Numbered from the stretch's first letter, positions 11,660 through 64,000 are shown. The stretch is 64,000 nt of DNA from Myxococcota bacterium (GCA_963674735.2 CAXXQS010000002.1:1632001-1696000); one strand, 5' to 3'. Made by a program: numbers and translations. Notes: generated by a model from the sequence alone, not told the origin.

Positions 11660-11693
11660 TCGGACTCTTTGTACGACGCACCAAGGATTGCAC

Positions 11694-12446: not shown

Positions 12447-12456
12447 GAACGAACGT

Positions 12457-13551: not shown

Positions 13552-13565
13552 GTTGCTGTGCCGAC

Positions 13566-14585
13566 CTACAGGCTCAGATAGCCGTAAAATTTTTGGTTGA
13601 AATCGGTGACGATCAGATCGGCCAAACGCATCAGCACCTTTTCTTGGGCATCGGTCCAGTTTTTGGCGCCATCCCGATAGGTGTGTTCCACCAGACCGAA
13701 GGTGGTGCCGTCGAGGTTGTCGATCAGTTCGAGGGTGGCGCGTGTTTTGGCGAAAACGAATCCGGTGCGGTTTTCCGGATTGGTTTTCATCTGTTTTACC
13801 TGGCCGCGCACGATCAAATCGGCACCTTCAACTTCAGGCTGGATCGTCAGCCGTCCGTTGTTGAGGCTTTTCACCACCGCCTCGCGAATGCGCCCGGCAT
13901 TATCTCCTTCGACGGTGATGGCCACCTTCAATTCGGAAAGTGTTCGGTTGAGCTTTTCATTCAGTGTGGCCGGACTGATCAAGGATGAGACTCCGGAACC
14001 GACGGCGTTGACGACGGTCAGCTGGGTGTTTTTGATTTCGCGTTCTTTCATGAGTTCCAATGCTTGAACCAGCGGGCGCGCTTTTTGTACGACGCTGCGG
14101 CCTTTCCCGCTTTGTTCCACACGGCTTTTAATCTCGAAATCGAGAGCGATGACTCGTCGTTCCAGTCGCATCACGGCCGGGGCGCGTTCCAGGGTTGCCA
14201 GAGCGTAGGCTTGCCCGCTTTCCGGGTCGATGAAACTTTCGCGGATGGCGACACCTTCGAGTGTCTGATTGACATAGGTGCGCGTCAACTCGCTGACCGA
14301 TGTTTTCAGTATCCAGGATTGCTGGGTGTTTCCCTCCATCCCGGTGAAGTCCTCCAGTGTTTTCTGGAGTTGCTCGACTTTGATGGAAAACTGTTTGGCG
14401 ATTTCAGCCCGGGCGCGGTCTTGCGCGGTGGCCAGATCCCCGCCTTGACCCATGCCCACCATGAAACGTGAATCCGGATACGAAGGCGGTACTTGCCCTT
14501 CGATCCATGCCGGACGGTCGATGTGGGAGCAAGCGGCGATGAAGCCGATCAGGATGAGGGCGAAGCTGAAAGCTATCGATCTCAT
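13566..14585 (-). CDS. LPP20-family lipoprotein
   Basis: Lipobox IAAC, RPAWIEG, GMG....A.DRARAEIAKQ. Confidence 0.7.
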   Translation of the reverse strand: MRSIAFSFALILIGFIAACSHIDRPAWIEGQVPPSYPDSRFMVGMGQGGDLATAQDRARAEIAKQFSIKVEQLQKTLEDFTGMEGNTQQSWILKTSVSELTRTYVNQTLEGVAIRESFIDPESGQAYALATLERAPAVMRLERRVIALDFEIKSRVEQSGKGRSVVQKARPLVQALELMKEREIKNTQLTVVNAVGSGVSSLISPATLNEKLNRTLSELKVAITVEGDNAGRIREAVVKSLNNGRLTIQPEVEGADLIVRGQVKQMKTNPENRTGFVFAKTRATLELIDNLDGTTFGLVEHTYRDGAKNWTDAQEKVLMRLADLIVTDFNQKFYGYLSL

Positions 14586-16039
14586 GATTCCCTCCTTTGG
14601 GTTGCAAGAGGCCTGGGAGTCTTATCGGGGTTGACCGAGACGGCCGCCTTTTCGTGGGGAGGCGATCCGACCGGAGCCGCGGGCGGCGAAGGAGATTTCG
14701 CTCCGGGTTCGCGGGCTCGCGTAATGAGAAAACGGGTTTGGTCGGGCTCAAGCGTCAAGGTAAAACGTTGACGATCGAGGATGGTGTTGCCGCTGAAATT
14801 GACCGTCACGGTGCGTTTCCCGGGGACGATCGGAACTACCGCCAGCCGCAGGTGATCGGGCAGGGTCATCCAGGAGCGCGTGTCGGCGGCCTCCGCGATA
14901 TCGTAAATATTCATGGCCAGATTCGCGATCAGTGAGGCGGCTTGCAAGCCTTCGTTCTTACTTTTTAAGGCGGCCACCTTGGTGACTTTCTTGATCGCAT
15001 AGCGGGCGATGGCTTTTGCCACCGCGCGGCCTTTCACCTGGCCGTTTTTGTCGTTGAGCATGTTGATGGCCAAGGTGCTGAGGTCGTGGATGCGCGGCAT
15101 CTTGACCGAGCGGCCCATGACGGTCAACGAGGCCTTGCGGGCGGTGAAAAAACTGCGGCGAAATTCGGGATAGGTAACCACGATTGTATCGAGTTGCGGA
15201 TCCGGGATGATCCACTTCTGAGAGAATTTATGCGCCACCACGCCCAGTTCTCCGATCACCACCAGCCGCGCTTTGCCATCCCAGTAGGCGGGATCGCTCT
15301 CGGGATAGCGTCCGAATTCCGGTTCATATTTGGCTATCGCCTCCGTGTATCCGAGTTGCCGGGCGGCGCGCAATACGGAAGCCTTAAGTGCCGTCGGCGT
15401 TTTGATTTTCGTAAGCGTGCCAAGCAGGGCATAGCCGTCCAAGGCATCTTCGTATGAACGGAAGGAGGCGTTGTAATCGCCTTCCGCTTCGTGAATCAGA
15501 CCGGCCAGGAACTGGGCGAAGCCATCTTGTTTGTAGGATGTCTTGACTTTGTTGCGCGCCAGATGATCCGTATAAACTTGCAGCCGGTGGTTGAGTTGGC
15601 GAGCTTCGACGGCGGCCGCTTCCAGGTTGTTGAGATGCAGATAATTGAAGGCCATGATCAGATTGATCATGATGCGTTCGAATTCTTCGCCTTTGAAGGC
15701 GCGTGAGGCTTCATTCCAGGCGATGGCGGCCAGTTCATCCGCGATACTGGTGCCGAACAGTTCGTCCAGTTTGAGCTTGGCGGCATCGAAAGCCCGGTTG
15801 CTCTCATCGTAGCGTCCCAGAAGATGCAGGATTTCGCCTTTATCCATCAAGTCCATGACGAGATCTTTTTTGGAACCCTCTTTGTGCAGTTTCTTCAATT
15901 GCGTCAAGGCTCTTTCATATTCGCCCAGGCGCACGTGGGTGACCATTTCCTTGCGCATCTCGGCATGGGTGGCGCAACCGCTTATGACCAGCAAAAGCAG
16001 GAGCCACCCGGCGCTGATTGAGGAATACCGCGTCGACAT
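14582..16039 (-). CDS. TPR-like lipoprotein (COG3014 type)
   Basis: Lipobox ISGC, FKGEEFER..IN...A.NYL, AAVEAR, ADTRSWMTLP. Confidence 0.75.
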   Translation of the reverse strand: MSTRYSSISAGWLLLLLVISGCATHAEMRKEMVTHVRLGEYERALTQLKKLHKEGSKKDLVMDLMDKGEILHLLGRYDESNRAFDAAKLKLDELFGTSIADELAAIAWNEASRAFKGEEFERIMINLIMAFNYLHLNNLEAAAVEARQLNHRLQVYTDHLARNKVKTSYKQDGFAQFLAGLIHEAEGDYNASFRSYEDALDGYALLGTLTKIKTPTALKASVLRAARQLGYTEAIAKYEPEFGRYPESDPAYWDGKARLVVIGELGVVAHKFSQKWIIPDPQLDTIVVTYPEFRRSFFTARKASLTVMGRSVKMPRIHDLSTLAINMLNDKNGQVKGRAVAKAIARYAIKKVTKVAALKSKNEGLQAASLIANLAMNIYDIAEAADTRSWMTLPDHLRLAVVPIVPGKRTVTVNFSGNTILDRQRFTLTLEPDQTRFLITRAREPGAKSPSPPAAPVGSPPHEKAAVSVNPDKTPRPLATQRRES

Positions 16040-43850: not shown

Positions 43851-44558
43851 TCAGCCCTCCGCGTAACGTGTAGGATCGGGGACTTGCGCCTCAGCGAAAC
43901 CTCGTTTTCGCAAAATACAGCTATCGCAGTGGCCGCAGGCCAAGCCTTCCGGGCTTGGGTCGTAGCAGCTATGGGTGAGACCGTAATCGATACCGAGCTT
44001 GACGCCTTCGCGGATGATCTGGGCTTTCGTGAGGTTCAACAGCGGGCTATGGACGGTGAATGTCCCACTGCCTTCCACCCCGGCGCGCGTGGCCAGATTC
44101 GCGGTTCGCTCGAAGGCGCGGATAAATTCCGGGCGGCAATCGGGATAGCCGGAGTAGTCGATAGCGTTGACGCCGATGAAAATATCGAAGGCTCCCAGCA
44201 CTTCGGCCCAACCGAGTGCGAACGACAGGAAAATCGTGTTGCGTGCCGGGACGTAGGTAATTGGAATGTCAGCCGAATGATCCACGTCCTGGTCTTTCGG
44301 GACGGCCAGATCGGCGGTCAGGGCCGAGCCGCCGAAGCGGCGCAAATCGAAGCGGATGGTGGCGACGTCTTCCGCACCGTAAACATCAGCGATACGCCGG
44401 GCGGCCTGCAATTCCACTGCGTGACGCTGGCCATAGTCGAAGGTCAAGGCATAGCAGGTGAAGCCTTGTTGGCGTGCGATGGCCAGGCAAGTGGCGGAAT
44501 CGAGTCCTCCGGACAGTAAAACGACGGCTTTTTTCGACGATGTTTGGCTCATGCTCAT
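43851..44558 (-). CDS. queC: 7-cyano-7-deazaguanine synthase
   Basis: [36 protein letters not shown]...CGHCDSC..R. Confidence 0.96.
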
Positions 44559-49769: not shown

Positions 49770-50741
49770 ATGCAAAGAAAACGTCAGTGGTTGTTGATTT
49801 TTTTATCGAGCCTGCTGATTTCCTGTGGCGGAGATGATGACGCAAGTGACAGCGGTGTCTTTAGCCGTGAAGGCGAGAGCTGTACGAAGACGGCGGACTG
49901 CGAAAGCGGTCTGCGCTGTGTGGATTTGGAGTGTGTGCAGGATAATGAAACTTCGGACGGCGACGAAACCGACGGGGATACGTCCGAGGGCGACTTTGCC
50001 GACGGCGACTCGACAGAGCGCGATCTCTCCTGGTTATCGATTCCGGGCGGAAGTTTTGAAATGGGCTGCTCGATAGACGACAATCGTTGCAATTCCAGCG
50101 AAAATCCGCGTCATCGCGTGACCGTCCCCGGCTTCAAGATGACGAAGTATGAGGTAACGAACGCGCAGTACGTGGAGTTTATAAACAACCGTGGGAGCAA
50201 TGAATGCTCGACTTTTCCCTGCATGAGCCTGCACCCTTATCGTTGGCATGAATCGGGCGGTTTGTGGAGGGTGATTCGTGGCCACGAGAACCATCCGGTT
50301 GTGCAAGTGACCTGGTATGGGGCGAAGGCGTTTTGCCAGGCGGCGGGCGGCCGCTTGCCCAGCGAAGCGGAATGGGAGTATGCGGCACGCGCCGGAACGA
50401 CGACGAGATACTATTGCGGCGATGAATCAATCTGCCTGCCTGATGTTGCGCGTTGGAATACGGGGAGCACCTGCCCGGTAGGCCAGTACGATCCAAACGA
50501 TTTCGGGTTGTACGACATGCTGGGCGGCGTGTGGGAGTGGGTGGAGGATTGCTGGCACGATGATTACGATGGTGCTCCCACGGACGGCACTGTTTGGGAC
50601 AGACAATTTTACACGACTCGTGTGTTGCGCGGCGGTTCCTACTGGTCCTATTCTTCCCGGAGCCTGGGCGCGTCGAGCCGCTCCAGGCTATTTCCCTACG
50701 AATTGGACACTGACATCGGCTTCCGCTGCGCCCGGGACTGA
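49770..50741 (+). CDS. Formylglycine-generating enzyme (FGE/SUMF1)-domain lipoprotein
   Basis: Lipobox LISC, Cys-rich knot, IPGGSFEMG, ENP.H.V, EVTNAQY, HPVVQVTW, RLPSEAEWEYAARAG, GLYDMLGGVWEW, RGGS..GFRCAR. Confidence 0.9.
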   Translation: MQRKRQWLLIFLSSLLISCGGDDDASDSGVFSREGESCTKTADCESGLRCVDLECVQDNETSDGDETDGDTSEGDFADGDSTERDLSWLSIPGGSFEMGCSIDDNRCNSSENPRHRVTVPGFKMTKYEVTNAQYVEFINNRGSNECSTFPCMSLHPYRWHESGGLWRVIRGHENHPVVQVTWYGAKAFCQAAGGRLPSEAEWEYAARAGTTTRYYCGDESICLPDVARWNTGSTCPVGQYDPNDFGLYDMLGGVWEWVEDCWHDDYDGAPTDGTVWDRQFYTTRVLRGGSYWSYSSRSLGASSRSRLFPYELDTDIGFRCARD

Positions 50742-50841: not shown

Positions 50842-51024
50842 ATTTCCTTTCTCGTGTAAACAGAGTAATACTCAGCACAAAATGACCCTTGAGCGCGTTT
50901 GCCATTGTGATTGCTGCTAGAAATCTCCCCTCGCAATCCGCTTGCCCACGCTGCACGCTTGCGTTACCATGGAGTCGGATGGAGTGATTCATCCGGTAAC
51001 CGAACAACGCGAAGAGGGATAAGC

Positions 51025-52029
51025 ATGTCGGATCGTATCCTGGTGCTCGGTGGCAGCGGTTTGATCGGGTCGCATATCGTCAAGGCTTTGGTGGCGCGCG
51101 ATTGGCCGGTGCGGGTGTTGTTGCGCGACAACAGCCCAACGTTGAACCTCGACGGCCTGCCGGTCGAGCGCGTCAAGGGCGACCTGCGCGACCATCCGTC
51201 GCTTTTGGCCGCGATGAGCGACTGCCGGGCCGTGTTTCATGCGGCGGGCTATTATCCGCTGTATTCGAAACCGGAGGAGGATGAGCGCCAGGCCATGCGG
51301 GAGATCCACAATGTGCTGGAAGCGGCGGCCGCCTCGGGGATCGGTCGCCTGGTCTACACCAGCAGCCCCGCTACCATCGGGAGTTATGGCAAAGACGGCC
51401 CCATGGCCAACGAAGATGCGCCGTATCATCTGGAAAACGAACGGTCCTCCTATTTTCGCGTGAAATACCGGATGGAGCAGGAAGTCCTGAACTGGAGTCC
51501 GCGCGGACTCGACGTGGTTCTACTGAACCCGGCTTTCGTGTTCGGGCCGGGAGACGTCAAACCGAGCTCCGGTCAATTGCTGCTCGATCTGGCCAACCGG
51601 CGCATACCGGCGTTTTTGGATGGTCCGCTCAATGTCGTGGATGTGCGGGATGTGGCTGAGAGCCATATTGCGGCTTTCGAGCGGGGAAAACGGGCGGAAC
51701 GCTACATTCTCGGCGGCACCAACACCCGCATGTCGGAGGTGATCGCCTTGGCTGCGACCATTGCCGATGTTCGGCCTCCCACGATTAAATTGCCCCTCTG
51801 GGCGGCGGAACTGGCGGCGGATTTTTCGGAAATGTGGAGCCAGTCCGTGCGCAAATCTCCCAAACCGGGAATTCCGCGTGTCGGGGTGGATATGCTGAAA
51901 CATGCGCAGCATCTCGACGATTCGCGGGCGCGGCAACGGTTGGGACATGCCGCCCGGCCCTTGGAGGAAACGTTGCGCGATACCTATGCCTGGTTTGCGC
52001 AGAACGACTACTGGACGCGCAAAGCCTAG
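51025..52029 (+). CDS. NAD-dependent epimerase/dehydratase (extended SDR, HpnA/DFR-like)
   Basis: LVLGGSGLIG, VFHAAG, VYTSS, YFRVK (YxxxK), NVVDVRDVA. Confidence 0.88.
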   Translation: MSDRILVLGGSGLIGSHIVKALVARDWPVRVLLRDNSPTLNLDGLPVERVKGDLRDHPSLLAAMSDCRAVFHAAGYYPLYSKPEEDERQAMREIHNVLEAAAASGIGRLVYTSSPATIGSYGKDGPMANEDAPYHLENERSSYFRVKYRMEQEVLNWSPRGLDVVLLNPAFVFGPGDVKPSSGQLLLDLANRRIPAFLDGPLNVVDVRDVAESHIAAFERGKRAERYILGGTNTRMSEVIALAATIADVRPPTIKLPLWAAELAADFSEMWSQSVRKSPKPGIPRVGVDMLKHAQHLDDSRARQRLGHAARPLEETLRDTYAWFAQNDYWTRKA

Positions 52030-52042: not shown

Positions 52043-52570
52043 TTAGTCGCCTTCGAACTCGACCAGATGGAAGGTCGAGATTCCGGCTTCCGAAAGTTTT
52101 TTGGTGCCTCCGATGTCGGGCAGATTGATCACGAAGCCCGCTTCAACCACTTCGGCTCCCATTTTACGACAGAGATTGGATACGGCCAGAGCCGTGCCGC
52201 CGGTGGCCAGCAGATCGTCGATCACCACCACTTTATCGCCGGAATCGAGTGCGTCGACGTGGATTTCGACGGCGTCCGTCCCATACTCCAGGGCGTATTC
52301 CTCACGCATCGTTTTCACCGGTAATTTTCCCGGTTTACGTGCGATTACGAGTCCTTTTCCGAGATCTTTGGCCAACACGGAACCGAAGATGAATCCGCGT
52401 GACTCGATGGCGACGAATTTGTCGAAGTCCAGGCCGCGATAATGCGTGAGAAGCGCGTCACACGTTTGTGCGAAACCTTCCGGATTGAGCATCAAGGTGC
52501 TGATATCGCGGAACATAATGCCCTCTTTCGGCCAATCGGGGACCGTGCGGATGTAGGACTTCAGAGTCAT
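52043..52570 (-). CDS. apt: Adenine phosphoribosyltransferase
   Basis: DWPKEGIMFRDI, ESRGFIFG, RKPGKLP, YALEYG, VIDDLLATGGT. Confidence 0.96.
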   Translation of the reverse strand: MTLKSYIRTVPDWPKEGIMFRDISTLMLNPEGFAQTCDALLTHYRGLDFDKFVAIESRGFIFGSVLAKDLGKGLVIARKPGKLPVKTMREEYALEYGTDAVEIHVDALDSGDKVVVIDDLLATGGTALAVSNLCRKMGAEVVEAGFVINLPDIGGTKKLSEAGISTFHLVEFEGD

Positions 52571-52633: not shown

Positions 52634-53200
52634 CTAAATGATCATTTTCTGCATCTTTTTAAAGGCTTCGGTGCCTGCACGCTCCAGGAGTTGAAAAAGG
52701 GCGGCTTCGGTGGTGGTCACCACCGCACCGGCACGCTCCATCAAGGCCAGACCGGCGGCCTGATTGTGGGGGAGACGCGTGGCGGTGGCATCGGCGACGA
52801 CGTGGACATCGTAGCCGAGCTTCAGAAGCCCGAGGGCGGTCTGATACACGCAGATGTGTGCTTCCATCCCCGTAAGCAGGATTTGTTTACGTCCCTTGCG
52901 GTCCAGCTGGCGAACCACTTCTTCTTCTTCCGTGGCGGCAAAATCGATTTTAGCAACGGTTAATGCGTCTGTAATCGACTGTTTTATATCGGGAATCGTG
53001 GGTCCGATCCCCTTCGGGTATTGCTCGGTGACGAGAATGGGGATTTTGAGTTCGTTTGCCGCGGCGGTCAGGATCGGGACATTTTTGAGTAAATTTGTCT
53101 GTCCTTCTTCCGTCATAACCTTAAAGAGACGCTCTTGAATATCCACCACCATCAGGTGGGTGCTTGCCGTGCCAAGAAACTGCGGGTGTTGATGATTCAT
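52634..53200 (-). CDS. Isochorismatase-family hydrolase
   Basis: VVDIQERL, VTEQYPKGIGPT, GMEAHICVYQT. Confidence 0.9.
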   Translation of the reverse strand: MNHQHPQFLGTASTHLMVVDIQERLFKVMTEEGQTNLLKNVPILTAAANELKIPILVTEQYPKGIGPTIPDIKQSITDALTVAKIDFAATEEEEVVRQLDRKGRKQILLTGMEAHICVYQTALGLLKLGYDVHVVADATATRLPHNQAAGLALMERAGAVVTTTEAALFQLLERAGTEAFKKMQKMII

Positions 53201-53617
53201 TATTTTTCTCCAAGTCAAAGGATGAATTTAATTAGCATGTCCCGGCACTATCGTCAATGGAAACGAGATGGGTAACAACCCGGTACGGTGTTTCATTCAC
53301 GAATCCAGAAAAAATGAGCTAAACTTGTGATTGCAGCAACCGTTATTAAAAGGGAAGACCTGTTTTACTGCTACGGCTTAAGGTTTGAGGTGGTCCCATC
53401 CACAGCAGCCGGCCATGTGGGGAATGCATGAACGATAGCCATCGCACAACGCAATCGATCGGAAGTGATGACAAACTTTGGGCGGTTGTGGCACATTTAC
53501 GGCGATCTTTATGTTTTTCTCATCGCAATCGCCACTGAAAGGCATTGACACAAGGTGGGGAGGCTGGGTAGGATTAAGTCTCACGCAGGGAGAAAGGGAA
53601 GGGAAACGGAAACAAGC

Positions 53618-53893
53618 ATGACTTATCCGTTCAGAAATCCGCGTGCGGCGACACGAACCATTGAAGGCGAGGCGGTTGCCGTTTCGCCGGACGATGCGAT
53701 GCTGCACAATTTCAACGAAGTGGGAACCCTGATTTGGGAACTGGCGGATGGTCGACACGACCTCGACGCCATTGCCGATCGCGTTTCGGCTACCTATGAC
53801 GTCGGCTTGGCCGAAGCCCGGCGCGATGTGGAAGCGTTTTGCAGCCAGTTGGCCGATCGCAAGATTCTCGTTTGGCGAGATAAGCCTCGATAA
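53618..53893 (+). CDS. Standalone PqqD-family / RiPP recognition element (RRE) protein
   Basis: 91 aa: R.IEGEAV.V......HNFNEVGTLIWELADG.....IADRV...YDV....A.RDV..F...L....IL, the PqqD/RRE pattern. Confidence 0.88.
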   Translation: MTYPFRNPRAATRTIEGEAVAVSPDDAMLHNFNEVGTLIWELADGRHDLDAIADRVSATYDVGLAEARRDVEAFCSQLADRKILVWRDKPR

Positions 53894-53978
53894 ATTATTA
53901 AGGAAACGTCGATAACCGACAAATGAAATTGGGAATACTTTAAGTAAACTTTTCAGTACCGAAAAGAAGGAGATGGTC

Positions 53979-56900
53979 ATGAAACGGATTCCGGAGATCC
54001 TGATGGTGTTGATCGCCACTACGCTATTGGCGGGGTTGGCGGTTGGATGCTCCAGCTCCAGTTCCATCGGCGGCGATTACGACCTGAGCAGCGAAACCGA
54101 CCTCGATGGCGATATGGAAGACACGGAAGAGCCGGAAGGCGACACCGACGGAGATGCGGACGAAGACGGTGATGTCGAAGAGGAGACGGCCATCCCGACG
54201 GTTTCCTTCGATGACGGAGATTCTTGGTCGGTGACGTATGCCGATGATGCCAATGGCAGTCTCGACGGTGTACAGATTTCGGTCGGAATCAGCACCGAAA
54301 ACATCGATGCCGGGGTTGCGGTCAGCTTGACCGTCGGGGATTCGACCGAGCCCTTGTCCGGCACGCTTGGAGACGATGGCAAAGCGACATTTGCCGATGT
54401 AACGCTGGAGCCGGGCACGAACAACCTGGGGGTTACGGTGGACTTGGAAGGCGATGACGACCTGACCGCCGCTGCCGCCGTTACCTTGACCGGTTGCCGG
54501 ATCATCTTTGTCGATCCCATCGAGGCCCAGAGCCTGACGGATGCGGGGGGAACCTGCTCAGCCGACGATTGCGGCGATGATCTCGATTGCAACATGCCGA
54601 ACCTGCAATACAACGTGTCGTTGACCGTCGAAAACGTCGGTGTCGGCCGCGCGGCGGCTCTGACCGTCGGGGATGTCGATCCGTTGACGGCCAATGTGGC
54701 GGCCGACGGTTTGACCTTCAGCATGGTGAGCCTGCCGCACAACGCCTCGCTTCCGCTTAGCGTCGAAGTAACCAATGCTGCGGGCTTCACCTGCGAGGCG
54801 GAGATCAATGTGGCGGTGGATATCCAGTGCGATTGCCATCTTGTCATTGATCCGATTCCCGAAGATTACAATCTGGCGGTTACCGACGATGACGACCAGA
54901 CCGACGGTTTCCAGAAGCGCTTCACCGCGACTTCCGATAACTGTCTGGACGGCTCGCAGGTCAGCTTCACTGTGGATGCCGGAACGCGCGCCGATCCGGT
55001 CGTGGTAACATTGGAAAACCAGCAAGCTGTTGCCTTACTGACCTTGCCCGATGGCTCGCATACGCTTGAAATGGGGATCACCGAGCCCGATACCGCGCGT
55101 ACCGGCGCGGCCGGTCCTTACAGCTTCCGCGTCGATCGGGAGGCTCCGCTGTTCGATTCGGTCAACCCGACCGATGGTATGACGCTTTCCAAGCTCAACG
55201 ACAGCGACCTGGATCTCAGCAACGGCATTCAAATTGCCGTTTCGGGTGTTACGACGGGCGTTGAAGCCTTGGATCCGGCCTTGACCGTCGCTTTGACCAT
55301 CGACGATGTGGATTGGCCGGAAACGGCGGATGTGGCCAACAACCAGTTCAATTTCGCTTCGGTTACCCTGTCGCGTCCCGATGGCGCGGCCGATCCGGTC
55401 GCTATGGTTCTTGAGTTGACCGTCCAAGACGAATTGGGGAATCCCACAACGGAGACGATCAACCTCAACGTGTATTTCGATGAACCGGAGTTGACCCTCA
55501 CTGAAGTCGGCACCAAACCGGTTGCCGATCCGCTGATTCTCAACATCGGTGACGATGAGGACGGCGTTGCAAACCTGCTGCAGGTTACCGTTACCGCCAG
55601 CAGCAACCTGATTCCCGAGAACTCCAATGCTCGGCTGTTTGTCGATTCGGGTGCGCCGGTTGATGGGACGATCGGGTCCGATGGCTCCGTCACCTGGGAA
55701 ATAGCCTTGGATAACGGTGCGCATACCCTGAGTGCCGATGCGGAACTATCGGGTGTCGCCGGAGCCGTTGAGGCCGAAGATGTGGATCTCTGGGCAGACT
55801 GGGAAGCTCCGATGATTCAGTTTGTCTCACCACAGAATAACGATTACGTCGATACCAATGTGATGGATGTTACCGTTTATTCGGATGCGGAGAACGCGTC
55901 CGATGGCGATAAAGGTCAGAAAGTGACCTTGCTGGTCAACGGCAGTGCGCTGGCGTCCGGTCCGGTGGCCCTTGATGCCGATGGATTGGCGCTTTTCGAA
56001 GACGTGGATGTTTCGATGTCGCGACTTTCGACTTTCCAACTGGAGGCGGAGATTTCGGATTACGCCGGAAACGATGCCGATACGCAACTTAGCTTGAATG
56101 TCGACAATCAGGCTCCGACCGTTGCCGTGACGGCTACCCCGGATGTTGGCAATCCCGCTCAAGTCGAAATCCTGATCACGGTTAGCGATGATGCGCCGAC
56201 GGAAGGACGCGATGTGACGCTGACGTTGTTTAACGTCAACAGTGCGCCTGTCCAGCAGGATCAACGAACCCTCAGCCTGGCTTCCGGAGAAGCGACCTAT
56301 ACCTACAATAGTCTTCCCGACAGCAGCTACAGCGTAACGGCTCGCTATGAAGATCAGGCCGGGAACGACGATAGCAGCAGTGACGATTTCGAGGTTGATA
56401 CCGGTTGTTATACCATGTCGATCACGGCGCCGACCAATGGCGTTTTCTATGGGATTGCCGATGCCGTCGGTGGGAACCCGGCCAATGGTGTTGACATTTC
56501 CGTTGTTGTCGAGGCCGGTGGCGTTCGACCCATCCCGGATGCCAGCGCGGTTTTCCTGCAAGTCGACGGCGCTTTGCCGGGCATAAGCGGAACGATGGCT
56601 TCAGGTGTGGCGACGTTTGCGAACGTCAACCTCGATGCCGGATCGCATACTTTGGAAGTGTACACTCTCAAACAGCCGGGACCGGTGTTCTGCTATGCGT
56701 CGCCGCGACCGGTTAATGTGACCGTCGATTTCACGGCCCCGACGCTCAGCCTGACGAGCCCCGCGCCTCCAGTCCCCGCGACGGACCCGCTGGTGTACAA
56801 TCTGGCCAGCACCGATGTTTCTCCCGATGCGGGTTTCCAGGCCGCTTTCACGTATCGCAGTCTGGATGCCGGTGAAGGTCAGGATGTCACGTTGGTGGTG

Positions 56901-59900
56901 AGCGACGGTTCGCGTGCGCAACAGTCGTACACGGCGGCGCTCAATGCTTCGGGCGATGCCCTTTTCAATTCCGTCACCCTTTCCGGCAGCACTTTTGCAC
57001 AAGGAACGCTGCTGACTCTGACGGCGACCGTGGAAGACGAATCCGGCAACACATCGGATCCGGTGGCTTATTTTGCCATCGTCGACCGCCTGGCGCCGAC
57101 TTTCAGCAATATCATGCCGACAGCGGGATCCACCTTGAATTCCGGTGATGACAACGATCCGGTTGCGGAAAACTTCCAGCTGCTGATGACTCTCACCATC
57201 GCCGATGGAACGCCGGGTTCCGGTAATGTGAGCGTCGAGGTGGTTCCGTCCGCCGATCCGGGCAACCCTTATGATCTTGGGCCCTTCAATCTGCAGGCGA
57301 ATGGCTCGGTGACGATTACCGGGTCTTTCACCGAAGGCAGCTACACCTTGAACATCGCCCATACCGATGAAGCCGGAAACAGCGGCGATACCAGCGTATT
57401 CTATCAGATCGACTTCGTGGCCGAACTGACGCTGCTTGACAAGAATTTCGATCCCATTCCTCCCGATGGCGGTGGAGATACGGTTCTCGACAGCTCGTTC
57501 GATACCAGCGGCGATGCCGGTTTCCAGACCAACTTCTATGCGAATACGCGTGGTTTCCAACAAGGTCTGCCGGTTTATCTGTGCTCGACCCTCGCGTCGG
57601 AAGGGACCAATGGAGTCTGTACCTCCGCTCCTGGCGGGGTTACGGCTTATCGCGTAGCCAGCGCGCTGGTTACCGCCGGCTCCGGCGATGCCGGGTCGGC
57701 CACGTTCAGCGATATCGATCTTGACGATCAGGCCACCCGCCTACTGTTTGTCGAAGGTACCGATGGGGCCAACAACTACAGCTCGTCCGAACCGGCAACG
57801 GTTATCGTCGATGCGACCGCTCCGACCGTGGATGCCTTTGTTATTACGGACAATCTGGTCGGCAACGATTTTCCGCCCAACATCGTTCTGAACCGCAATG
57901 AAGGTGACATCGTAACGGGTCTGTTGGTTGTCGATATGAGAGTGGATAGTGCCGACAGCGACGCTGAAACGGTACGTGTTTATGTCGGGGCCGTGGATGG
58001 TACCATCGAAGCCAGCGCGAGTCTCTCTGCCGGTTCGGCGGTTTTACGTTTGCCGGATGTCTCCGGTTTGCCGAACGGATATACGGATGAGCTGAATGCG
58101 GTGGTCGTCGATGAAAACGGCAATGAGTCCGATCCGTTCACATTGCCGGTTATCGTGGATCTGCGGAGTCCCTCGATTGCCTTTGTCGGAAGCGGTCTCT
58201 TGAGCGTCAATGCCGATGATTGCTCGGGCTTCAGCGGCGACGCTTGCGAGACGTCGGTTTCCGTTACGGTCACACGCGCCGCCAATGATCTTTTCGATCT
58301 GGACGGCGGAGTTGTCACGATTACCGATTCGGCCAGCCGGGCGGTGGTCGGTACGGCGGTTATTCCCAGCATCGCCGCCGGAGCTTCGGCCGAAATTCCG
58401 GTTGATGTGACGCTGGACGAAGGATCCTACACGCTCTATGCCAGCGCTGCCGATCCTTATGGCAATTTGTCCGAGACCGTCAACCGGAGTGTCAGCGTCG
58501 ATGTGTTTGCTCCGACGGTGGCGTTTGTAACGCCGTCGAGCGCATCGATTACGTATGATGGCGGCACGGATGATCAGGCTACCTGCGGCGGCAGCACCAC
58601 CGATCAGTACTTCACCCGCTGCGACTGGCAGGTTTCAGCCAGTGGCGTGACGAGTAATACGACCTTACAGCTTTATTACAAGGTTTCCACGGACCCGGGC
58701 GACTTCAACCCCTTCGACCTGCCCAGTCAGGGTTCGACCAGCGTGAGTGCGGACGGCAACTGGTCGATCAGTCGCGCGGATTTCCAACTGGACGGCAGTG
58801 AAACTTTCCTGGTTAAAGTGCAGGCCACCGAAGTTGCGACCGGTAACGTCGGGTGGTCGGACGAGGTGTCGGTTACCATCAATGGTTTCAGTCCGACCTG
58901 GACGATCGCGTTCAAACGTCTGGATGATTCAACGTTTGCCAGCGGCGCAATCTTTGATGAGAACGATGAAAAGGATGGCGATTTGACCAATGCCTCCGTA
59001 ACCATCGATTTCAAGGTTTCCACCAACATTCCGGATGGCGAAACGATGAGCCTGTCCGTTAACGGCAACGGCCCCGCCAGCCAAAGCATCGCCAGCGGAA
59101 TCGCGACGTTTAGCGATGTGGTTCTCAATGAAGGTGCGCAGAACACCTTGAGCGTCGAGGTGGTTGGTTATACCAGTTCATCGGTAACGGTTATCGCCGA
59201 TACCAAAAATCCGGAGCTGGTTTTCACCTCTCCCGTATTTAAAGCGACGTACAACGTGGCGGACGATACGGATACCGGTGATCGTACCGGCGTGTTGCTG
59301 GGATCCAGCGTCGTGGTCAAAACCACGGATATCATGCCCCAGTCGGGACAACCGGGTTACACGGTTCGTCTGGTGGCCGACGATGGAACGAAGGCTGTGA
59401 CCACCTTGGCCACGGCGAATTGGACGACCGATACCGGTGTCTACAAATACAAAGCGACCTTCACCAATGTCAGCCTGCCGAACGGGGCTATTTCGCTGGA
59501 TGTCAAAGCCGACGATACCGGGGCGGCTCCGGTGGATCGCGCCGAACACCAGGGGGCCGTGCAGACGCCTCTGCCGTCGATGACGGTCGATGCCGATCCT
59601 CCGGCGGATGCTACCAGCCTGGAAGTCTGTCTGGGCTCGGATACGGGCACGACGGGCAGTTTCGATCAGGATGGTGTCAACTGTACGTCGGCTTATGCCT
59701 GTAACAGTCTGAGCAGCCGCTGTGACCGCCATGCCGGCACGGCCGCCCTTGTGTGGACGGCACCCTCCGGTGATGGAACGACCGGTAGCGTGACGCCGAG
59801 CAGTTATGAAATCCATTACGTCAAGAAAACCGGCACGGTCGACCCGTGTTCGGGTGTTACCTGGGCGACGGCCAACAGCCCATCCGCCGGTGTAACCGTT

Positions 59901-61475
59901 ACCGTGGATGCGCTCGTTGCGCCAAGTAGCAAACAAGGGGCGGTGGTTACGGGGCTGTCGGTCAATACCGATACCAGCTATTGCTTCCTGGTCAAGGCCA
60001 AGGATGCGGCCGGGAACAGCTCGATCAATGCGGTTTCTGTGGCCCGTGAAGTGGCGTTCATCAAAGAAACGCTGGTGTCGGGTGTGGGCGGAAGCGAATT
60101 GGTCTATCCGGGGTATTACGTCGAATTCGGCGATTTCAACGGAGATGGTTGCGCTGATGTCGCCGTCGCCGATCCTTATTGGGGCACGCAGAGCACCTGC
60201 GCTGAAGTTGACAAGAGCGACTGCACACAGGAGGGTGGAAAAGTCAGCGTGATTTATGGCGATGACGGCGATGCCTGTACGCCTGAAAGCGATTGGGAAA
60301 CCAACGGTTTCTACCAGTCTGCGAACTCGTTTGGCGACAACCTTGGCTGGAGCCTGGGGGTGGGCGATCTGAACGGCGATTGCATCGATGACTTGGCTGT
60401 GAGCGCCTCCCGTTACAATTCCGATGATGGCGGCGTGTTTGTTTACCTCGGTAGTTCCTCGGGTCTCAAAACCACCGCCGGTGATGTGGCGGGTGGTGAG
60501 CCGAGCATCGAACCCGATGTCACGATCGGGTCGGATGCGGGGGGATATCAGGGTCTTGGCAACCATATCGAGGTCATGAACTGGAACGGCGATACGGTGA
60601 ATTGCGGCGGAACCGATAGGCCGGTGCACGACCTGTTTGTTTCGACTTACTTCTATTCGGACTATGCCACCATCTTCTTCCCGGTTTATGCGTTCCTGGG
60701 CGGCTCCGGCTTTACCAGCGGTGCGAACTTCAATGTCACCAGTGGCGACGAAGATTTCAGTGTTCAGGGATTGTACGACGATCCGACCACTACTTATTCG
60801 TGGTACTTCGGCTTCTTCCTGTCTCATGGCGATTTAGATGGTGACGGCTATGAAGATCTACTGATCAGCGATACCGATTACCAGTGGTCGGGCGGTACTC
60901 GCGATCATTTCTGGGTGGTTTGGGGCAACTCCACCGTATCGAGTTCGATCCAAGCGCCTGCCGCGGGCTTCCTCGAACTTCCGCCTGATACCGCCGATCA
61001 GGTCGAGGATTATGGATTCTATGTCGGAGGTGTGCTCGATACCGACAATGACGGTCTTGACGAGGCTCTGGTGCGCAAACTCGCCACCAATTCCGTGCAC
61101 TATTGGAAAAGCACGACAGGCAGCGAGCGTGATGTTGCCGATACAACGCGCTTCTTCCAGTATGAGACATCGCCGGGTAGCACGGATACCTACTATGGCA
61201 TCGAACCGGCCACGGCGGGCGATTTCAACCATAGCGGCTTCAACGATGTCATTTTGTCCGGCACCGGTATCGTGCGTGTCTTCTGGGGCCGCACCGGTGG
61301 CATCAAGAATGACAGCGAAGCGCCGGGCGCACCGGAAGACGACTTCATCAACATCAACGGTCTGTCGACGGTCAACACCTTGCAGGCTAAGGGTAACGGC
61401 GATTTCGACAATGATGGTTCCGCCGATATCGTCGTGGTGGATCAGTCGACCGGTGACGTTTACCTGATTCACTAA
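53979..61475 (+). CDS. Giant acidic surface lipoprotein with tandem Ig-like repeats, an FN3-like domain and C-terminal FG-GAP repeats (adhesin-like)
   Basis: AAGGAG RBS, lipobox AVGC, DGD linker, repeated D.AGN...VD..AP Ig motifs, WTAPSGDG...Y...Y..VKAKDAAGN FN3-like unit, and several GD.NGDG.DD FG-GAP motifs. Confidence 0.88.
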   Translation: MKRIPEILMVLIATTLLAGLAVGCSSSSSIGGDYDLSSETDLDGDMEDTEEPEGDTDGDADEDGDVEEETAIPTVSFDDGDSWSVTYADDANGSLDGVQISVGISTENIDAGVAVSLTVGDSTEPLSGTLGDDGKATFADVTLEPGTNNLGVTVDLEGDDDLTAAAAVTLTGCRIIFVDPIEAQSLTDAGGTCSADDCGDDLDCNMPNLQYNVSLTVENVGVGRAAALTVGDVDPLTANVAADGLTFSMVSLPHNASLPLSVEVTNAAGFTCEAEINVAVDIQCDCHLVIDPIPEDYNLAVTDDDDQTDGFQKRFTATSDNCLDGSQVSFTVDAGTRADPVVVTLENQQAVALLTLPDGSHTLEMGITEPDTARTGAAGPYSFRVDREAPLFDSVNPTDGMTLSKLNDSDLDLSNGIQIAVSGVTTGVEALDPALTVALTIDDVDWPETADVANNQFNFASVTLSRPDGAADPVAMVLELTVQDELGNPTTETINLNVYFDEPELTLTEVGTKPVADPLILNIGDDEDGVANLLQVTVTASSNLIPENSNARLFVDSGAPVDGTIGSDGSVTWEIALDNGAHTLSADAELSGVAGAVEAEDVDLWADWEAPMIQFVSPQNNDYVDTNVMDVTVYSDAENASDGDKGQKVTLLVNGSALASGPVALDADGLALFEDVDVSMSRLSTFQLEAEISDYAGNDADTQLSLNVDNQAPTVAVTATPDVGNPAQVEILITVSDDAPTEGRDVTLTLFNVNSAPVQQDQRTLSLASGEATYTYNSLPDSSYSVTARYEDQAGNDDSSSDDFEVDTGCYTMSITAPTNGVFYGIADAVGGNPANGVDISVVVEAGGVRPIPDASAVFLQVDGALPGISGTMASGVATFANVNLDAGSHTLEVYTLKQPGPVFCYASPRPVNVTVDFTAPTLSLTSPAPPVPATDPLVYNLASTDVSPDAGFQAAFTYRSLDAGEGQDVTLVVSDGSRAQQSYTAALNASGDALFNSVTLSGSTFAQGTLLTLTATVEDESGNTSDPVAYFAIVDRLAPTFSNIMPTAGSTLNSGDDNDPVAENFQLLMTLTIADGTPGSGNVSVEVVPSADPGNPYDLGPFNLQANGSVTITGSFTEGSYTLNIAHTDEAGNSGDTSVFYQIDFVAELTLLDKNFDPIPPDGGGDTVLDSSFDTSGDAGFQTNFYANTRGFQQGLPVYLCSTLASEGTNGVCTSAPGGVTAYRVASALVTAGSGDAGSATFSDIDLDDQATRLLFVEGTDGANNYSSSEPATVIVDATAPTVDAFVITDNLVGNDFPPNIVLNRNEGDIVTGLLVVDMRVDSADSDAETVRVYVGAVDGTIEASASLSAGSAVLRLPDVSGLPNGYTDELNAVVVDENGNESDPFTLPVIVDLRSPSIAFVGSGLLSVNADDCSGFSGDACETSVSVTVTRAANDLFDLDGGVVTITDSASRAVVGTAVIPSIAAGASAEIPVDVTLDEGSYTLYASAADPYGNLSETVNRSVSVDVFAPTVAFVTPSSASITYDGGTDDQATCGGSTTDQYFTRCDWQVSASGVTSNTTLQLYYKVSTDPGDFNPFDLPSQGSTSVSADGNWSISRADFQLDGSETFLVKVQATEVATGNVGWSDEVSVTINGFSPTWTIAFKRLDDSTFASGAIFDENDEKDGDLTNASVTIDFKVSTNIPDGETMSLSVNGNGPASQSIASGIATFSDVVLNEGAQNTLSVEVVGYTSSSVTVIADTKNPELVFTSPVFKATYNVADDTDTGDRTGVLLGSSVVVKTTDIMPQSGQPGYTVRLVADDGTKAVTTLATANWTTDTGVYKYKATFTNVSLPNGAISLDVKADDTGAAPVDRAEHQGAVQTPLPSMTVDADPPADATSLEVCLGSDTGTTGSFDQDGVNCTSAYACNSLSSRCDRHAGTAALVWTAPSGDGTTGSVTPSSYEIHYVKKTGTVDPCSGVTWATANSPSAGVTVTVDALVAPSSKQGAVVTGLSVNTDTSYCFLVKAKDAAGNSSINAVSVAREVAFIKETLVSGVGGSELVYPGYYVEFGDFNGDGCADVAVADPYWGTQSTCAEVDKSDCTQEGGKVSVIYGDDGDACTPESDWETNGFYQSANSFGDNLGWSLGVGDLNGDCIDDLAVSASRYNSDDGGVFVYLGSSSGLKTTAGDVAGGEPSIEPDVTIGSDAGGYQGLGNHIEVMNWNGDTVNCGGTDRPVHDLFVSTYFYSDYATIFFPVYAFLGGSGFTSGANFNVTSGDEDFSVQGLYDDPTTTYSWYFGFFLSHGDLDGDGYEDLLISDTDYQWSGGTRDHFWVVWGNSTVSSSIQAPAAGFLELPPDTADQVEDYGFYVGGVLDTDNDGLDEALVRKLATNSVHYWKSTTGSERDVADTTRFFQYETSPGSTDTYYGIEPATAGDFNHSGFNDVILSGTGIVRVFWGRTGGIKNDSEAPGAPEDDFININGLSTVNTLQAKGNGDFDNDGSADIVVVDQSTGDVYLIH

Positions 61476-61492
61476 TCCGGGTTGATTATGAC

Positions 61493-61530
61493 GGCCCGGG
61501 GCTGGCTCTGGCCTGGCCCCGGGTCTTTAG
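61493..61530 (+). terminator. Hairpin terminator after the giant lipoprotein gene
   Basis: GCCCGGGGC...GCCCCGGGT stem followed by CTTTAGTT. Confidence 0.5.
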
Positions 61531-61564
61531 TTAATTCGGTTAGTTGGAAATCTCTTTGAATCGC

Positions 61565-61593
61565 TTGACAGTCTGGTGACACCTATTGATAAT
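61565..61593 (+). promoter_or_regulatory. Sigma70-type promoter for the peptide-kinase unit
   Basis: TTGACA-N17-GATAAT, 50 bp upstream of the peptide ATG. Confidence 0.7.
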
Positions 61594-61643
61594 TGCGAGA
61601 TCGGAAGACCCAAAACTTCGCATTCTTTGAACGAGAGGACAGC

Positions 61644-61802
61644 ATGAGCGACAGAACGAAGACTACGGAACAAGAAGTCCGGAGCAGCAAGAAGCCATAT
61701 AAAAAACCCGAAGTCGAAAGCGCCAAGATTTACGAGCGTTTATCGCTGGCCTGCGGTAAAGCTACGCAGCCTCCCTGCCGCACTCCGCTTAAGTCGGCTT
61801 AA
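61644..61802 (+). CDS. Putative RiPP-like precursor peptide (52 aa)
   Basis: GAGAGGA RBS. Sequence MSDRTKTTEQEVRSSKKPYKKPEVESAKIYERLSLACGKATQPPCRTPLKSA has a KKPYxKP (YxxP) leader motif and a Cys-x7-Cys core. Confidence 0.75.
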   Translation: MSDRTKTTEQEVRSSKKPYKKPEVESAKIYERLSLACGKATQPPCRTPLKSA

Positions 61803-61824
61803 TTCAAGGTCTACAGGTTAGCTG

Positions 61825-62679
61825 TTGCCTCACACATCGGAAGGCTTTTGTATTGCGGGCGTTTTCTTTTCGCTGGATGCTGCGCCTGAGGTATATAAAG
61901 CTTGCGTCATTCCTCGATATCTTTCGGCATTCATCTCCGATGGCATGAGTCGTCACGACTTGGTGCATGCGCGGATCGAAGCGCTTGACAAGCCGGAAGA
62001 ATTCGTGAGCGATTCAACCGTACCGGATGTTCGGATTCTGCCTCATCATCAAGGCTATCGTATTGAAGTTCCAGGGGGTATTTTCGCTAATGTCGATGAG
62101 GAAAACCGATCGATCGTGATGATGATTCCGCGCGCATTGCTTGAAGGCGATTGTTTCACGGCCTGGATCCCATTTTCTTCCCTGCTCCGTATCTTCTTTT
62201 CGATCGAATTACCCAAGCGGAACAGCGGACTTCTCATGCATGCTTCCTCGATTGAAACAACCCAAGGGGCACAACTGTTTCTCGGGCCTTCGGGGGCGGG
62301 AAAATCCACGGTTTGCGATCTGGGGGGTGAACGAAATATTTTGAATGACGAAGTATCGATTTTACGCCGGATTTCAGGCTCTTGGGTCGTGGAACCTTCT
62401 CCGTTCTTTTCCCGCGAAACACGGGAAAATCGCGCGATTCGGCCCGGTCCTGTGGCCGGGATTCATCTGCTAACTCAATCGGAATTCGATTCTCTTGAAT
62501 CTCTATCCATTCCGCAGGCGCTAGCTCCCTTCATGCGCTGCATCATGAATTTTTTGGATGGCCCCGAGGTGGCGGAAAGACTTCTGGAGCTTTCCACGGA
62601 CTGTCTGATGGCCCATCCGGCCACCCGCCTGTATTTCACTCCAACCCCGGCATTTTGGTCGCACATCGAAGCGGATTGA
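61825..62679 (+). CDS. HPr kinase-related P-loop protein (ScmC / RiPP-kinase-like)
   Basis: GLLMHASSI...LFLGPSGAGKST (Walker A)...LNDE, the HprK-like His / P-loop / acidic-pair layout. Confidence 0.75.
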   Translation: MPHTSEGFCIAGVFFSLDAAPEVYKACVIPRYLSAFISDGMSRHDLVHARIEALDKPEEFVSDSTVPDVRILPHHQGYRIEVPGGIFANVDEENRSIVMMIPRALLEGDCFTAWIPFSSLLRIFFSIELPKRNSGLLMHASSIETTQGAQLFLGPSGAGKSTVCDLGGERNILNDEVSILRRISGSWVVEPSPFFSRETRENRAIRPGPVAGIHLLTQSEFDSLESLSIPQALAPFMRCIMNFLDGPEVAERLLELSTDCLMAHPATRLYFTPTPAFWSHIEAD

Positions 62680-62687: not shown

Positions 62688-64000
62688 CTATTTCTCCTTG
62701 TGAGGGAAGGCTTGCGGACTGTTGAAATACGCCTTGGTTTCCTTGGCAACCAGGCCTGAGAGGAATAGCAGCCCGATCAGGTTCGGGAAGGCCATCAACC
62801 CGTTGAAAATATCTGAAACGGTCCACACGACCGGCAAAGCCAGTGTCGCACCGAGCGGGATGGCCAGGGTGTAGAGCGTTCGATAGACAATCACGGATTT
62901 TGCTCCAAAGATGAACTCAGTCGAACGATCTCCATAATAACTCCATGAAATTATGGTCGAAAAAGCAAAGAAAACGAGTCCAAAGCTGACGATGTAGCGG
63001 CCGATTCCCGGCAGCGCTTGCTGAAAAGCGCTGGCGGACAGGACAGCTCCCGTCAGTTGTTTGCCCGTTTCGGGGTCTGTGTGCGTCCACAAGCCACTAA
63101 TCAAGATGACCAGGGCTGTCATAGAGCAAATCACGATCGTGTCGATAAATGGCCCCAACATGGCGACCAATCCCTCACGCGGGGGATACTTGGTTTTGGC
63201 GGCGGCATGGGCGATGGGAGCCGATCCCAAACCGGCTTCATTGGAAAAAAGACCGCGAGCCACACCGAATCGCATGGTCTCCATCACCGTGGCGCCCAAA
63301 AAGCCTCCGGCGGCGGAAGTCGGGGTGAAGGCGTGCTTGACGATCAGGGCGAATGTGGCCGGAATCAGGTCGAAATGCATCACCAGAATCGTCAGGGATC
63401 CCAGAACGTAGATGATGGACATAAACGGCACGATACGAGACGCCACATTGGCGATGCGTCGGATGCCGCCAAGAATGACCAATCCCACCAATATCCCTAA
63501 AACAATGCCGGTTATCCATTTGGGGATTCCCAATTCCGCCAGTGGTTCGGCGACGGAATTGGCTTGCACCATGTTGCCGATACCGAAGGAGGCGATGACG
63601 GCGAACAGCGCGAATAGCCAACCCAGCCATTTTTGTCCAAGCCCCTCGGCCAGGTAATACATCGGGCCGCCGGAAACCGAGCCGTCGGGATTGATGCGCC
63701 GGTATTTGCTGCTCAGGGTGCACGAAGTGAATTTGGTGGCCATACCCACAAACGCCGTCACCCACATCCAGAAAATCGCTCCCGGACCGCCCGCCGCGAT
63801 CGCAGTGGCGACTCCGGCGATGTTGCCGGTCCCGATGGTGGCCGATAGCGCAGTTGCTAACGCCTGAAAATGACTGATGTCGCCTTCGTCCTCGGGATCG
63901 TCGAATTTCCCGGAAATCAATGTCCAGGCATAGCGAAAGCGTAATAGTTGGATGAGTTTCAGTCGTAGGGTAAGAAAGATTCCCGTGCCCACCAATAAAA
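62688..64000 (-). CDS. Sodium:alanine/glycine symporter (AGCS family), 5' end outside window
   Basis: ISHFQALATALSATIGTGNIAGVA, GGPGAIFWMW, GGPMYY, GVARGLFSNEAGLGSAP, FIDTIVICSMT. Confidence 0.93.
   Translation of the reverse strand, partial: LLVGTGIFLTLRLKLIQLLRFRYAWTLISGKFDDPEDEGDISHFQALATALSATIGTGNIAGVATAIAAGGPGAIFWMWVTAFVGMATKFTSCTLSSKYRRINPDGSVSGGPMYYLAEGLGQKWLGWLFALFAVIASFGIGNMVQANSVAEPLAELGIPKWITGIVLGILVGLVILGGIRRIANVASRIVPFMSIIYVLGSLTILVMHFDLIPATFALIVKHAFTPTSAAGGFLGATVMETMRFGVARGLFSNEAGLGSAPIAHAAAKTKYPPREGLVAMLGPFIDTIVICSMTALVILISGLWTHTDPETGKQLTGAVLSASAFQQALPGIGRYIVSFGLVFFAFSTIISWSYYGDRSTEFIFGAKSVIVYRTLYTLAIPLGATLALPVVWTVSDIFNGLMAFPNLIGLLFLSGLVAKETKAYFNSPQAFPHKEK

Follow-up and report, generated by a model that had tools for sequence, protein, structure and literature searches.

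In a 64,000-nt stretch of a Myxococcota bacterium (GCA_963674735.2; the stretch is hereafter the window, and its genome is G000), four genes at positions 53618-62679 encode a PqqD-type recognition element (RRE) of the kind that serves peptides made on the ribosome and modified after translation (RiPPs), a giant integrin-like lipoprotein, a small precursor peptide and an HprK-fold kinase-like protein. From its sequence, this region probably belongs, in reduced and split form, to a large cassette family, undescribed so far, that matures a peptide with the help of an RRE and whose product acts together with the giant protein. The full form of the cassette comprises the PqqD-type RRE, the giant integrin-like lipoprotein, the precursor peptide, the HprK-fold kinase, a radical SAM enzyme with a SPASM domain (rSAM/SPASM), and a soluble Ser/His peptidase resembling signal peptidase I (SpI).

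The family emerges from a survey anchored on the kinase-like gene. A kinase profile made from nine proteins was run against 401 genomes sampled from the phylum, with two Anaerolineales loci lying outside it, and matched 185 of the 401 at E <= 1e-5; most of these 185 matches cover the P-loop half only, so that the figure counts the superfamily. Up to 20 kb around the matches listed, down to approximately E 1e-16, and around loci already in hand were scanned with profiles in six frames, giving a survey set of 89 kinase-anchored loci from 87 genomes and 33 families of one phylum, the window included. Within this set, an rSAM/SPASM gene accompanies the kinase in 78 loci (28 families), a peptide matching a 35-sequence profile in 76 (27 families), an S24/SpI-like peptidase, sought with a profile of two sequences, in 67 (28 families), a PqqD gene in 65 (24 families), an FG-GAP giant on the kinase's strand in 54 (24 families) and an NTP_transf_5 gene in 16 (8 families). 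These counts are affected by the overlap of stop-to-stop open reading frames (ORFs) where G+C content is high, by the truncation of many contigs and by the non-independence of related genomes. Wherever the assignments were checked, Pfam annotation of 56 neighbours agreed with them, covering Radical_SAM with SPASM, PqqD, Peptidase_S24, FG-GAP/Big_13 and NTP_transf_5, and the cassette peptidases show a weak sigpep_I_arch match (30-32 bits), the pattern GxSMxP...LHR and no transmembrane segment. A sequence-only reading had called the region a minimal cassette; with the rSAM/SPASM gene and the peptidase so often in cis, it is instead the reduced form of a larger and widespread one. The same reading had proposed a neighbourhood analysis of whether giant surface proteins turn up again next to peptide, RRE and kinase homologues, and in the 54 loci just mentioned they do.

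Three gene orders prevail. The commonest runs PqqD, giant (about 1,900-2,900 aa), peptide, kinase, rSAM/SPASM and peptidase; a second runs kinase, PqqD, rSAM, a propeller protein of 850-1,550 aa, peptide and peptidase; a third, giant-free, runs kinase, PqqD, rSAM and peptide, often with a nucleotidyltransferase. In both giant-containing orders, the peptide gene ends no more than 450 nt past the giant's stop codon, as it does in 48 of the 49 loci that hold both. Because the peptide is nearly always carried beside the giant, this arrangement suggests that the two function together. Closer to the window, a kinase-like query found a match in 15 of 41 related genomes, and the order PqqD-giant-peptide-kinase is kept in three further genomes of the same family (G004, G001 and G003; tblastn and ORF maps). 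The same order recurs in other families, at loci L063, L074 and L076 among others. A peptide-kinase pair lacking RRE and giant is found on a short contig of G002, from the same family, and in G008, which belongs to a different family in that order.

The sequence-only reading had placed in the window four co-oriented genes between opposite-strand neighbours, namely a standalone PqqD/RRE, a giant Ig/FG-GAP lipoprotein, a peptide with its own promoter and ribosome-binding site, and an HPr-kinase-like P-loop protein. The ORF listing bears this out, with all four genes on the plus strand between an isochorismatase-family gene (52634-53218, minus strand, identified by library scan) and the amino-acid carrier gene agcS (62688-63995, minus strand, 534.7 bits), and the assignments hold gene by gene. 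The PqqD-family RRE (ORF 53555-53893, plus strand, 91 aa from the ATG at 53618) matches PF05402 with 60.5 bits against a cut-off of 23.4, residues 18-84 covering positions 1-67 of the 67-position model, and belongs to that family. It is the sole PqqD match in its genome, and orthologues with 51-64% identity occupy the equivalent position in G004, G001 and G003.

The precursor peptide (ORF 61593-61802, plus strand, 52 aa from the ATG at 61644) is preceded by the ribosome-binding-type sequence GAGAGGA, 7 nt before its ATG. It has a basic N-terminus followed by KKPYKKPEV, a motif of the RRE-binding type, then IYERLSL, Cys37, Cys45 and, next to last, Ser51. The gene is single-copy in its own genome and is conserved next to the kinase-like gene in relatives; the peptide has no family match in Pfam or NCBIfam, and cluster look-ups returned no informative names, giving 'hypothetical protein' or nothing. 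In an alignment of seven peptides, Tyr19, Pro22, Glu31 and Cys37 are invariant. The 35-sequence profile finds 1,462 representatives at E <= 1e-3 among 1.84 billion, and the best 150 of these 1,462 show the aromatic-x-x-P motif in 150 of 150, at least two Cys in 146, a C-terminal Ser in 133 and a Ser within the last two residues in 140. Among the peptides of the loci collected in this analysis the share is lower, with a terminal Ser in 39 of 77 and a Ser in the last two residues in 50 of 77. Directly after the FE(R) motif, the peptide alignments contain no conserved Ser, the positions there being mostly Ala or Leu.

The kinase-like gene (61825-62679, plus strand, 284 aa) begins 22 nt past the peptide's stop with a TTG at 61825, a start codon that is uncertain, and encodes an HprK/PEPCK-fold P-loop protein that is a putative peptide kinase. 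By sequence it yields weak matches only, such as 30.1 bits to the ScmC model TIGR04249 against a cut-off of 125, and a sequence search of solved structures returned matches at the P-loop level only. Its AlphaFold2 model (pLDDT 88.7) aligns to PEPCK (1ii2_B) with a VIA-align Z of 15.1 over 239 residues, and residues 133-284 align to four HprK/P chains with Z 10.3-11.4 and rmsd 2.5-3.0 over 115-120 residues, the next unrelated structural match standing at Z 4.2; the modelled protein thus falls within the HprK/P-PEPCK fold. Its Walker A motif is GPSGAGKST. Across 94 homologous ORFs, His139 and Lys160 are present in 94 of 94 and Asp175 in 84, and position 176 carries Glu (51 ORFs) or Asp (40 ORFs). 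This pattern matches the catalytic His-Lys-Asp-Asp motif that lasso-peptide kinases share according to PMC9266682, where PadeK, ThcoK, SyanK and PsmK are described as phosphorylating the conserved C-terminal Ser of their precursors. In Bradymonas, according to PMC10368454, BsfK instead phosphorylates the core residue Ser3 and works faster with the RRE BsfB1. The gene is single in its own genome, and all nine kinase homologues found in a large protein collection carry the precomputed label PF27840.1.

The giant lipoprotein (53973-61475, plus strand, 2,500 aa) begins with a signal peptide and the lipobox LAVGC, followed by an acidic linker. That the module modifies or regulates the giant, the second alternative of the sequence-only reading, is a possible role; because of this Sec/lipoprotein signal, a modification of the giant in the cytoplasm seems unlikely. 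Library matches (FG-GAP, PF01839, 50.6 bits in three stretches; Big_13, 49.9 bits) outline an architecture of many Ig-like, Big_13-type domains, an FN3-like domain and, at about residues 1920-2500, a C-terminal seven-blade FG-GAP propeller like the integrin alpha head. The C-terminal 651 aa, comprising the FN3-like domain and the propeller, were modelled with a mean pLDDT of 70.4, residues 1-72 of the model falling below 50, and the model matches pieces or chains of integrin alpha heads with a Foldseek E of 4e-12 and a target-normalised TM of 0.60-0.63. Together with invariant Asp/Gly columns in the alignment, the model identifies an integrin-alpha-like propeller bearing Ca-binding DxDxDG-type loops. 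Orthologues in G004, G001 and G003 are 35-38% identical, and the giants diverge fast outside the C-terminal module. Among 37 long giants, a simple pattern detects a signal peptide with lipobox Cys in 24, and several more, the window's included, are recognised by eye. When a profile of the C-terminal 650 residues was run against five other genomes, the cassette's giant was the best and only full-length match in four; in the window's own genome, the one further match is an unrelated 572-aa FG-GAP protein. In G323, the best match to the C-terminal module (C1:6565007-6566281) lies in a 2,260-aa ORF far from the cassette examined and possibly belongs to a second copy of the system.

The stop codon of the giant is followed immediately by a terminator-like hairpin on the plus strand (stem 61493-61525, with a T tail to 61535; 13 pairs, 10 of them G-C), and beyond it a promoter-like site for the peptide-kinase unit (61565-61593, plus strand; TTGACA-17-GATAAT, 11 of 12 matches), which lends weight to the promoter claimed for the peptide. 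At the equivalent intergenic place in G004, G001 and G003, a G+C-rich hairpin, a T run and CTTGAC recur; the stem sequences differ, and CTTGAC is invariant across all four genomes of the family, the window's among them. A further site precedes the PqqD gene (53545..53574, plus strand; TTGACA-18-TAGGAT, 10 of 12 matches) and is a consensus match only. Four promoter-like sites in the region compare with 5.3 +/- 2.7 in shuffles, which is no excess, so the argument for these signals turns on position and conservation, not on count. Read in this way, the region would form two transcription units, one of RRE and giant and the other of peptide and kinase.

What sets the window apart is the absence of the two enzymes that usually complete the cassette. 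Its family, f1 (four loci), is the only sampled family with a giant and no nearby rSAM or peptidase; L078 also lacks both, on a contig that ends right after the kinase. In agreement with the sequence-only reading, which had noted the lack of a lasso cyclase, a transglutaminase-like protease and an associated radical SAM enzyme, the window holds no SPASM enzyme, no Transglut_core3 protease and no full Asn-synthase-type cyclase. None of the six SPASM matches of its genome falls within it, and its sole Asn_synthase match is a 28-bit partial one in a 250-aa ORF at about 44370-44540. That reading had also advised a search of the remaining genome for rSAM/SPASM, peptidase and nucleotidyltransferase partners, and unlinked homologues of all three were found. 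Two unlinked rSAM/SPASM genes, at C2:831964-833298 and C1:1361543-1363003, score like cassette members (E 2e-70) and nest in the cassette clade of a FastTree phylogeny of 99 sequences (local support 0.905 and 0.803), with the other 17 rSAM matches of the genome outside it; their neighbourhoods contain no RRE, kinase or peptide. The copy on contig C1, the only one searched in relatives, has unlinked orthologues in G002, G003, G004 and G008 and was not found in G001. One unlinked SpI-like gene, at C2:261591-262103, encodes GHSMRP...LHR without a hydrophobic segment and has unlinked orthologues in G001, G003 and G004, none being found in G002 or G008, and the single NTP_transf_5 gene of the genome lies 406 kb away. 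It is plausible, given these homologues, that the rSAM enzyme and the peptidase are encoded elsewhere in the genome.

Some further features of these genome-wide matches stand on their own. The orphan rSAM/SPASM gene at C1:1361543-1363003, with orthologues at L145-L149, carries a conserved N-terminal extension, approximately 100-160 residues long, ahead of its radical SAM core. Orthologue alignments cover this extension from residue 57-61, Pfam makes no call there, and it could be a fused peptide-binding domain. At C1:2646723-2648204, G000 encodes the His-Xaa-Ser radical SAM maturase HxsB, which scores 554 bits on TIGR03978 (cut-off 370) and represents a separate system of peptide modification. 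Two Asn_synthase genes stand in tandem at C2:1924524-1925642 and C2:1927523-1928635, approximately 230 kb off, and a sub-threshold Transglut_core3 match lies 18 kb from the pair.

A working order of events can be proposed from these components. The RRE would bind the leader motif PYxKPxV and present the peptide, after which the kinase would transfer phosphate from ATP to the conserved C-terminal or penultimate Ser, Ser51 in the window. The two conserved Cys would then be cross-linked, probably by one of the two unlinked rSAM/SPASM paralogues acting in trans, and the unlinked SpI-like peptidase would cut off the leader near the conserved FER motif, which is YER here. In the last and least defined step, the product would work with the giant surface protein whose gene the peptide so regularly follows. 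More tentatively, once its two Cys are cross-linked, its C-terminal Ser is phosphorylated and its leader is gone, the peptide might serve as a dedicated ligand or small subunit of the giant's tip propeller. The earlier proposal of an uncharacterised RiPP class with maturases encoded elsewhere survives in part: the RiPP-like reading is supported and the distant maturases are plausible from the unlinked homologues, while the idea of a class standing alone gives way to membership in the larger family.

The role of the peptide could be read differently. It may no longer be matured at all and may act as a cytoplasmic kinase substrate, like the HPr of HprK, that controls the expression, export or assembly of the giant. 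Such a switch would account for the peptide-kinase pairs at L016, L017, L094 and L101, which have no RRE, giant, rSAM or peptidase within approximately 20 kb (8 kb in L016), for the pair's own conserved promoter after a terminator, and for the absence in cis of exporter, peptidase and rSAM across the four genomes of the family; even so, we consider it rather unlikely, since the family has retained RRE, leader motif and Cys pair, which would be unexpected had presentation and cross-linking been lost, unlinked rSAM and peptidase homologues persist in the same genomes, and no DNA-binding or signalling domain is present. It is less likely again that the giant is a passenger, its gene sitting in a permissive site between RRE and peptide, and that the cassette makes a diffusible secondary metabolite. 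Giant-free loci do exist (35 of 89, including 9 of the 10 loci of family f17 with the order kinase-PqqD-rSAM-peptide plus nucleotidyltransferase), the peptides of family f31 look alike with or without an adjoining giant, and the giants diverge fast. Against this stand the presence of the giant in 24 of 33 families, the position of the peptide directly after it in 48 of 49 loci and two orders, the finding that in four of five genomes no other protein matches the C-terminal module as well as the cassette's giant does, and a chance adjacency within 12 kb that, by our own reading, would amount to a few percent at 1-9 FG-GAP ORFs per genome.

That the four genes are non-functional leftovers, decaying after the loss of rSAM and peptidase, is improbable: two enzymes usual in cis are indeed missing, but all four ORFs are intact in four genomes whose proteins are only 35-64% identical, and conservation extends to the kinase's catalytic residues, the peptide's motifs and the regulatory signals between giant and peptide. 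Phosphorylated lasso peptides of the paeninodin type are marked by a discrete RRE, a YxxP leader, an HprK-like kinase and a C-terminal Ser, and the window's genome has two Asn_synthase genes at C2:1.92 Mb, so a cyclase and a B2 protease encoded elsewhere might be imagined. This has hardly any probability, because the defining enzymes, cyclase and B2 protease, were not found with the precursor, and a lasso system is ruled out on that ground. No Transglut_core3 (PF13471) protein scores above cut-off in the genome, no cyclase appears in any of the Pfam-annotated neighbourhoods, the two Asn synthases are tandem and 230 kb away, and an rSAM/SPASM partner is the rule across the surveyed loci.

Several observations weigh against a matured peptide that acts with the giant. 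The terminator and promoter between giant and peptide mean that co-expression of the two is not required here, and the cassette contains no exporter gene by which a cytoplasmic peptide would meet an exported lipoprotein. The window's peptide ends in KSA, with Ser next to last rather than last, and two characterised HprK-like RiPP kinases, BsfK and LppK, act on the core Ser3 instead, so the C-terminal Ser is a candidate site. The tie of the unlinked rSAM and peptidase genes to the cassette is one of homology, and one deeper node of the rSAM tree has a support of 0.226. FG-GAP repeats are common, with 1 to 27 matched stretches per genome in five genomes, read as roughly 1-9 ORFs, and each profile used to count giant, rSAM, peptidase and PqqD genes drew on 2 to 11 of the very loci counted.

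RRE-dependent maturation is usually read as natural-product biosynthesis; here, a peptide family is tied to a giant lipoprotein across at least 24 families. If peptide and giant act together, bacteria would have a new means of constructing or controlling a surface structure, phosphorylated RiPPs would extend beyond Bacillota, and a kinase family that is still unnamed would gain a function. Should the ligand or subunit role also hold, the cassette would yield a surface device of two parts, a bacterial 'integrin with its own ribosomal peptide ligand', in place of a diffusible natural product, and the window's lineage would be an example of separate control over its peptide-kinase and RRE-giant halves. 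With neither rSAM nor peptidase in cis, the window's version offers a simple starting point of peptide plus kinase, the RRE being optional.

Additional features surround the cassette and its relatives. Upstream of the region lie genes unrelated to it, encoding an FGE-sulfatase/EgtB-like protein (49770-50741), an HpnA-like sugar epimerase (50911-52029) and adenine phosphoribosyltransferase (apt, 52043-52570); apt and the isochorismatase gene are both kept in G004, apt only in G001 and neither in G003, where PriA takes their place. A gene of the arginine methyltransferase (PRMT-like) type adjoins the kinase-like gene in two distant loci, L017 (G008; 3442-4584, minus strand) and L062 (G272; 8700-10256, plus strand), the latter also carrying a B12-binding radical SAM gene and an ABC transporter, and both represent variant cassettes with other tailoring enzymes. 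At L028 (positions 9635-15563), from an Anaerolineales metagenome-assembled genome, a 1,242-aa Peptidase_C25 protein occupies the place of the FG-GAP giant, with genes for a kinase-like, an S24/SpI-like and a PqqD protein and an ORF weakly resembling the peptide around it; this place may accept other large secreted proteins. On the short contig of L111 (G230; 363-6765), two divergently oriented copies of the kinase-like and rSAM/SPASM genes occur, one of which adjoins a propeller protein.

No description of the cassette was found among the papers listed by full-text searches, which do not cover subscription journals, and term searches of PMC12710340 and PMC4289311 returned nothing on it. The nearest described systems are the linear polyphosphorylated peptides (LPPs) of Bacillota and the phosphorylated RiPPs of the paeninodin type. 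As set out in PMC13381572, the LPP family comprises LppA, the RRE LppB, the HprK-like kinase LppK, the archaeal-type signal peptidase I LppS, LppN and LppD, includes an NTP transferase and an exporter, and yields linear phosphorylated peptides; its leader motif is YxxPxVLxHQxIxFETxxS, Ser3 is polyphosphorylated, and LPPs are stated to be restricted to Bacillota. The same text contains none of the terms 'radical SAM', 'FG-GAP' or 'Myxococc'. The window's cassette shares with LPPs the discrete RRE, the HprK-like kinase and the YxxP leader, in which YxxPxV is followed by a hydrophobic-FE motif, as well as the lack of a macrolactam cyclase, and the LPP kinase acts on a precursor Ser, as is proposed here; the window's relatives add a small SpI-like Ser/His peptidase and, in a subset, an NTP_transf_5 protein. 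It differs in that the SpI-like peptidase, NTP transferase and MsbA-type exporter are absent from the window's cassette and from L013-L015. The cassette also lies in another phylum, has an rSAM/SPASM partner at most loci, two conserved Cys in its peptide and a giant FG-GAP lipoprotein with no MsbA-type exporter seen, and places its conserved Ser at the C-terminus rather than at core position 3, which follows the FET cleavage site.

The paeninodin-type lasso peptides and the bsf system are alike in their HprK-like kinase with a tetrad of the His-Lys-Asp-Asp type, in the C-terminal precursor Ser, which is last in 133 of the best 150 family representatives but next to last in the window's peptide, and, as proposed here, in an RRE that assists the kinase (PMC9266682, PMC10368454). 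They differ in that the cassette has neither lasso cyclase nor B2 protease, its core lacks lasso ring logic, and BsfK of Bradymonas sediminis acts on Ser3 of its core. Compared with rSAM/SPASM RiPPs of the sactipeptide and ranthipeptide type, the maturase is absent from the window, is present in 78 of the 89 related loci, and is represented in the cassette clade by the two unlinked paralogues of the same genome.

SynChlorMet cassettes consist of an HprK-like hypothetical protein (ScmC), a PqqD homologue (ScmD) and the rSAM/SPASM enzymes ScmE and ScmF; full-text searching under the cassette's name brought up no paper. The likeness is that ScmC is the best NCBIfam match of the kinase-like gene and that the Scm models (TIGR04248-04251) are among the best of the PqqD gene; the scores nevertheless stay far below cut-off, at 30.1 versus 125 bits for ScmC (TIGR04249) and 32.4 versus 100 for ScmD (TIGR04248), and no component of the cassette, its full form included, reaches a curated NCBIfam cut-off. 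Nor does the ScmE and ScmF pair recur, since relatives hold one rSAM and the window none, and the ScmE/ScmF models, with their cut-off of 400, give 60-93 bits for related cassettes; a giant and an SpI-like peptidase are not listed among the Scm models.

A last comparison concerns how such a system might work. The quinohemoprotein amine dehydrogenase (QHNDH) assembly includes a seven-blade propeller subunit. In its qhp operon, according to PMC7876137, a small peptide is cross-linked at Cys by an rSAM/SPASM enzyme and becomes a subunit of a larger assembly. QHNDH differs in lacking both a kinase and a discrete RRE and in having enzymes as large subunits rather than Ig-repeat, adhesin-like lipoproteins. 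As a works-like comparison only, it offers a parallel to the product proposed here: a peptide that is cross-linked, loses its leader and then takes its place as a subunit of a larger periplasmic assembly.

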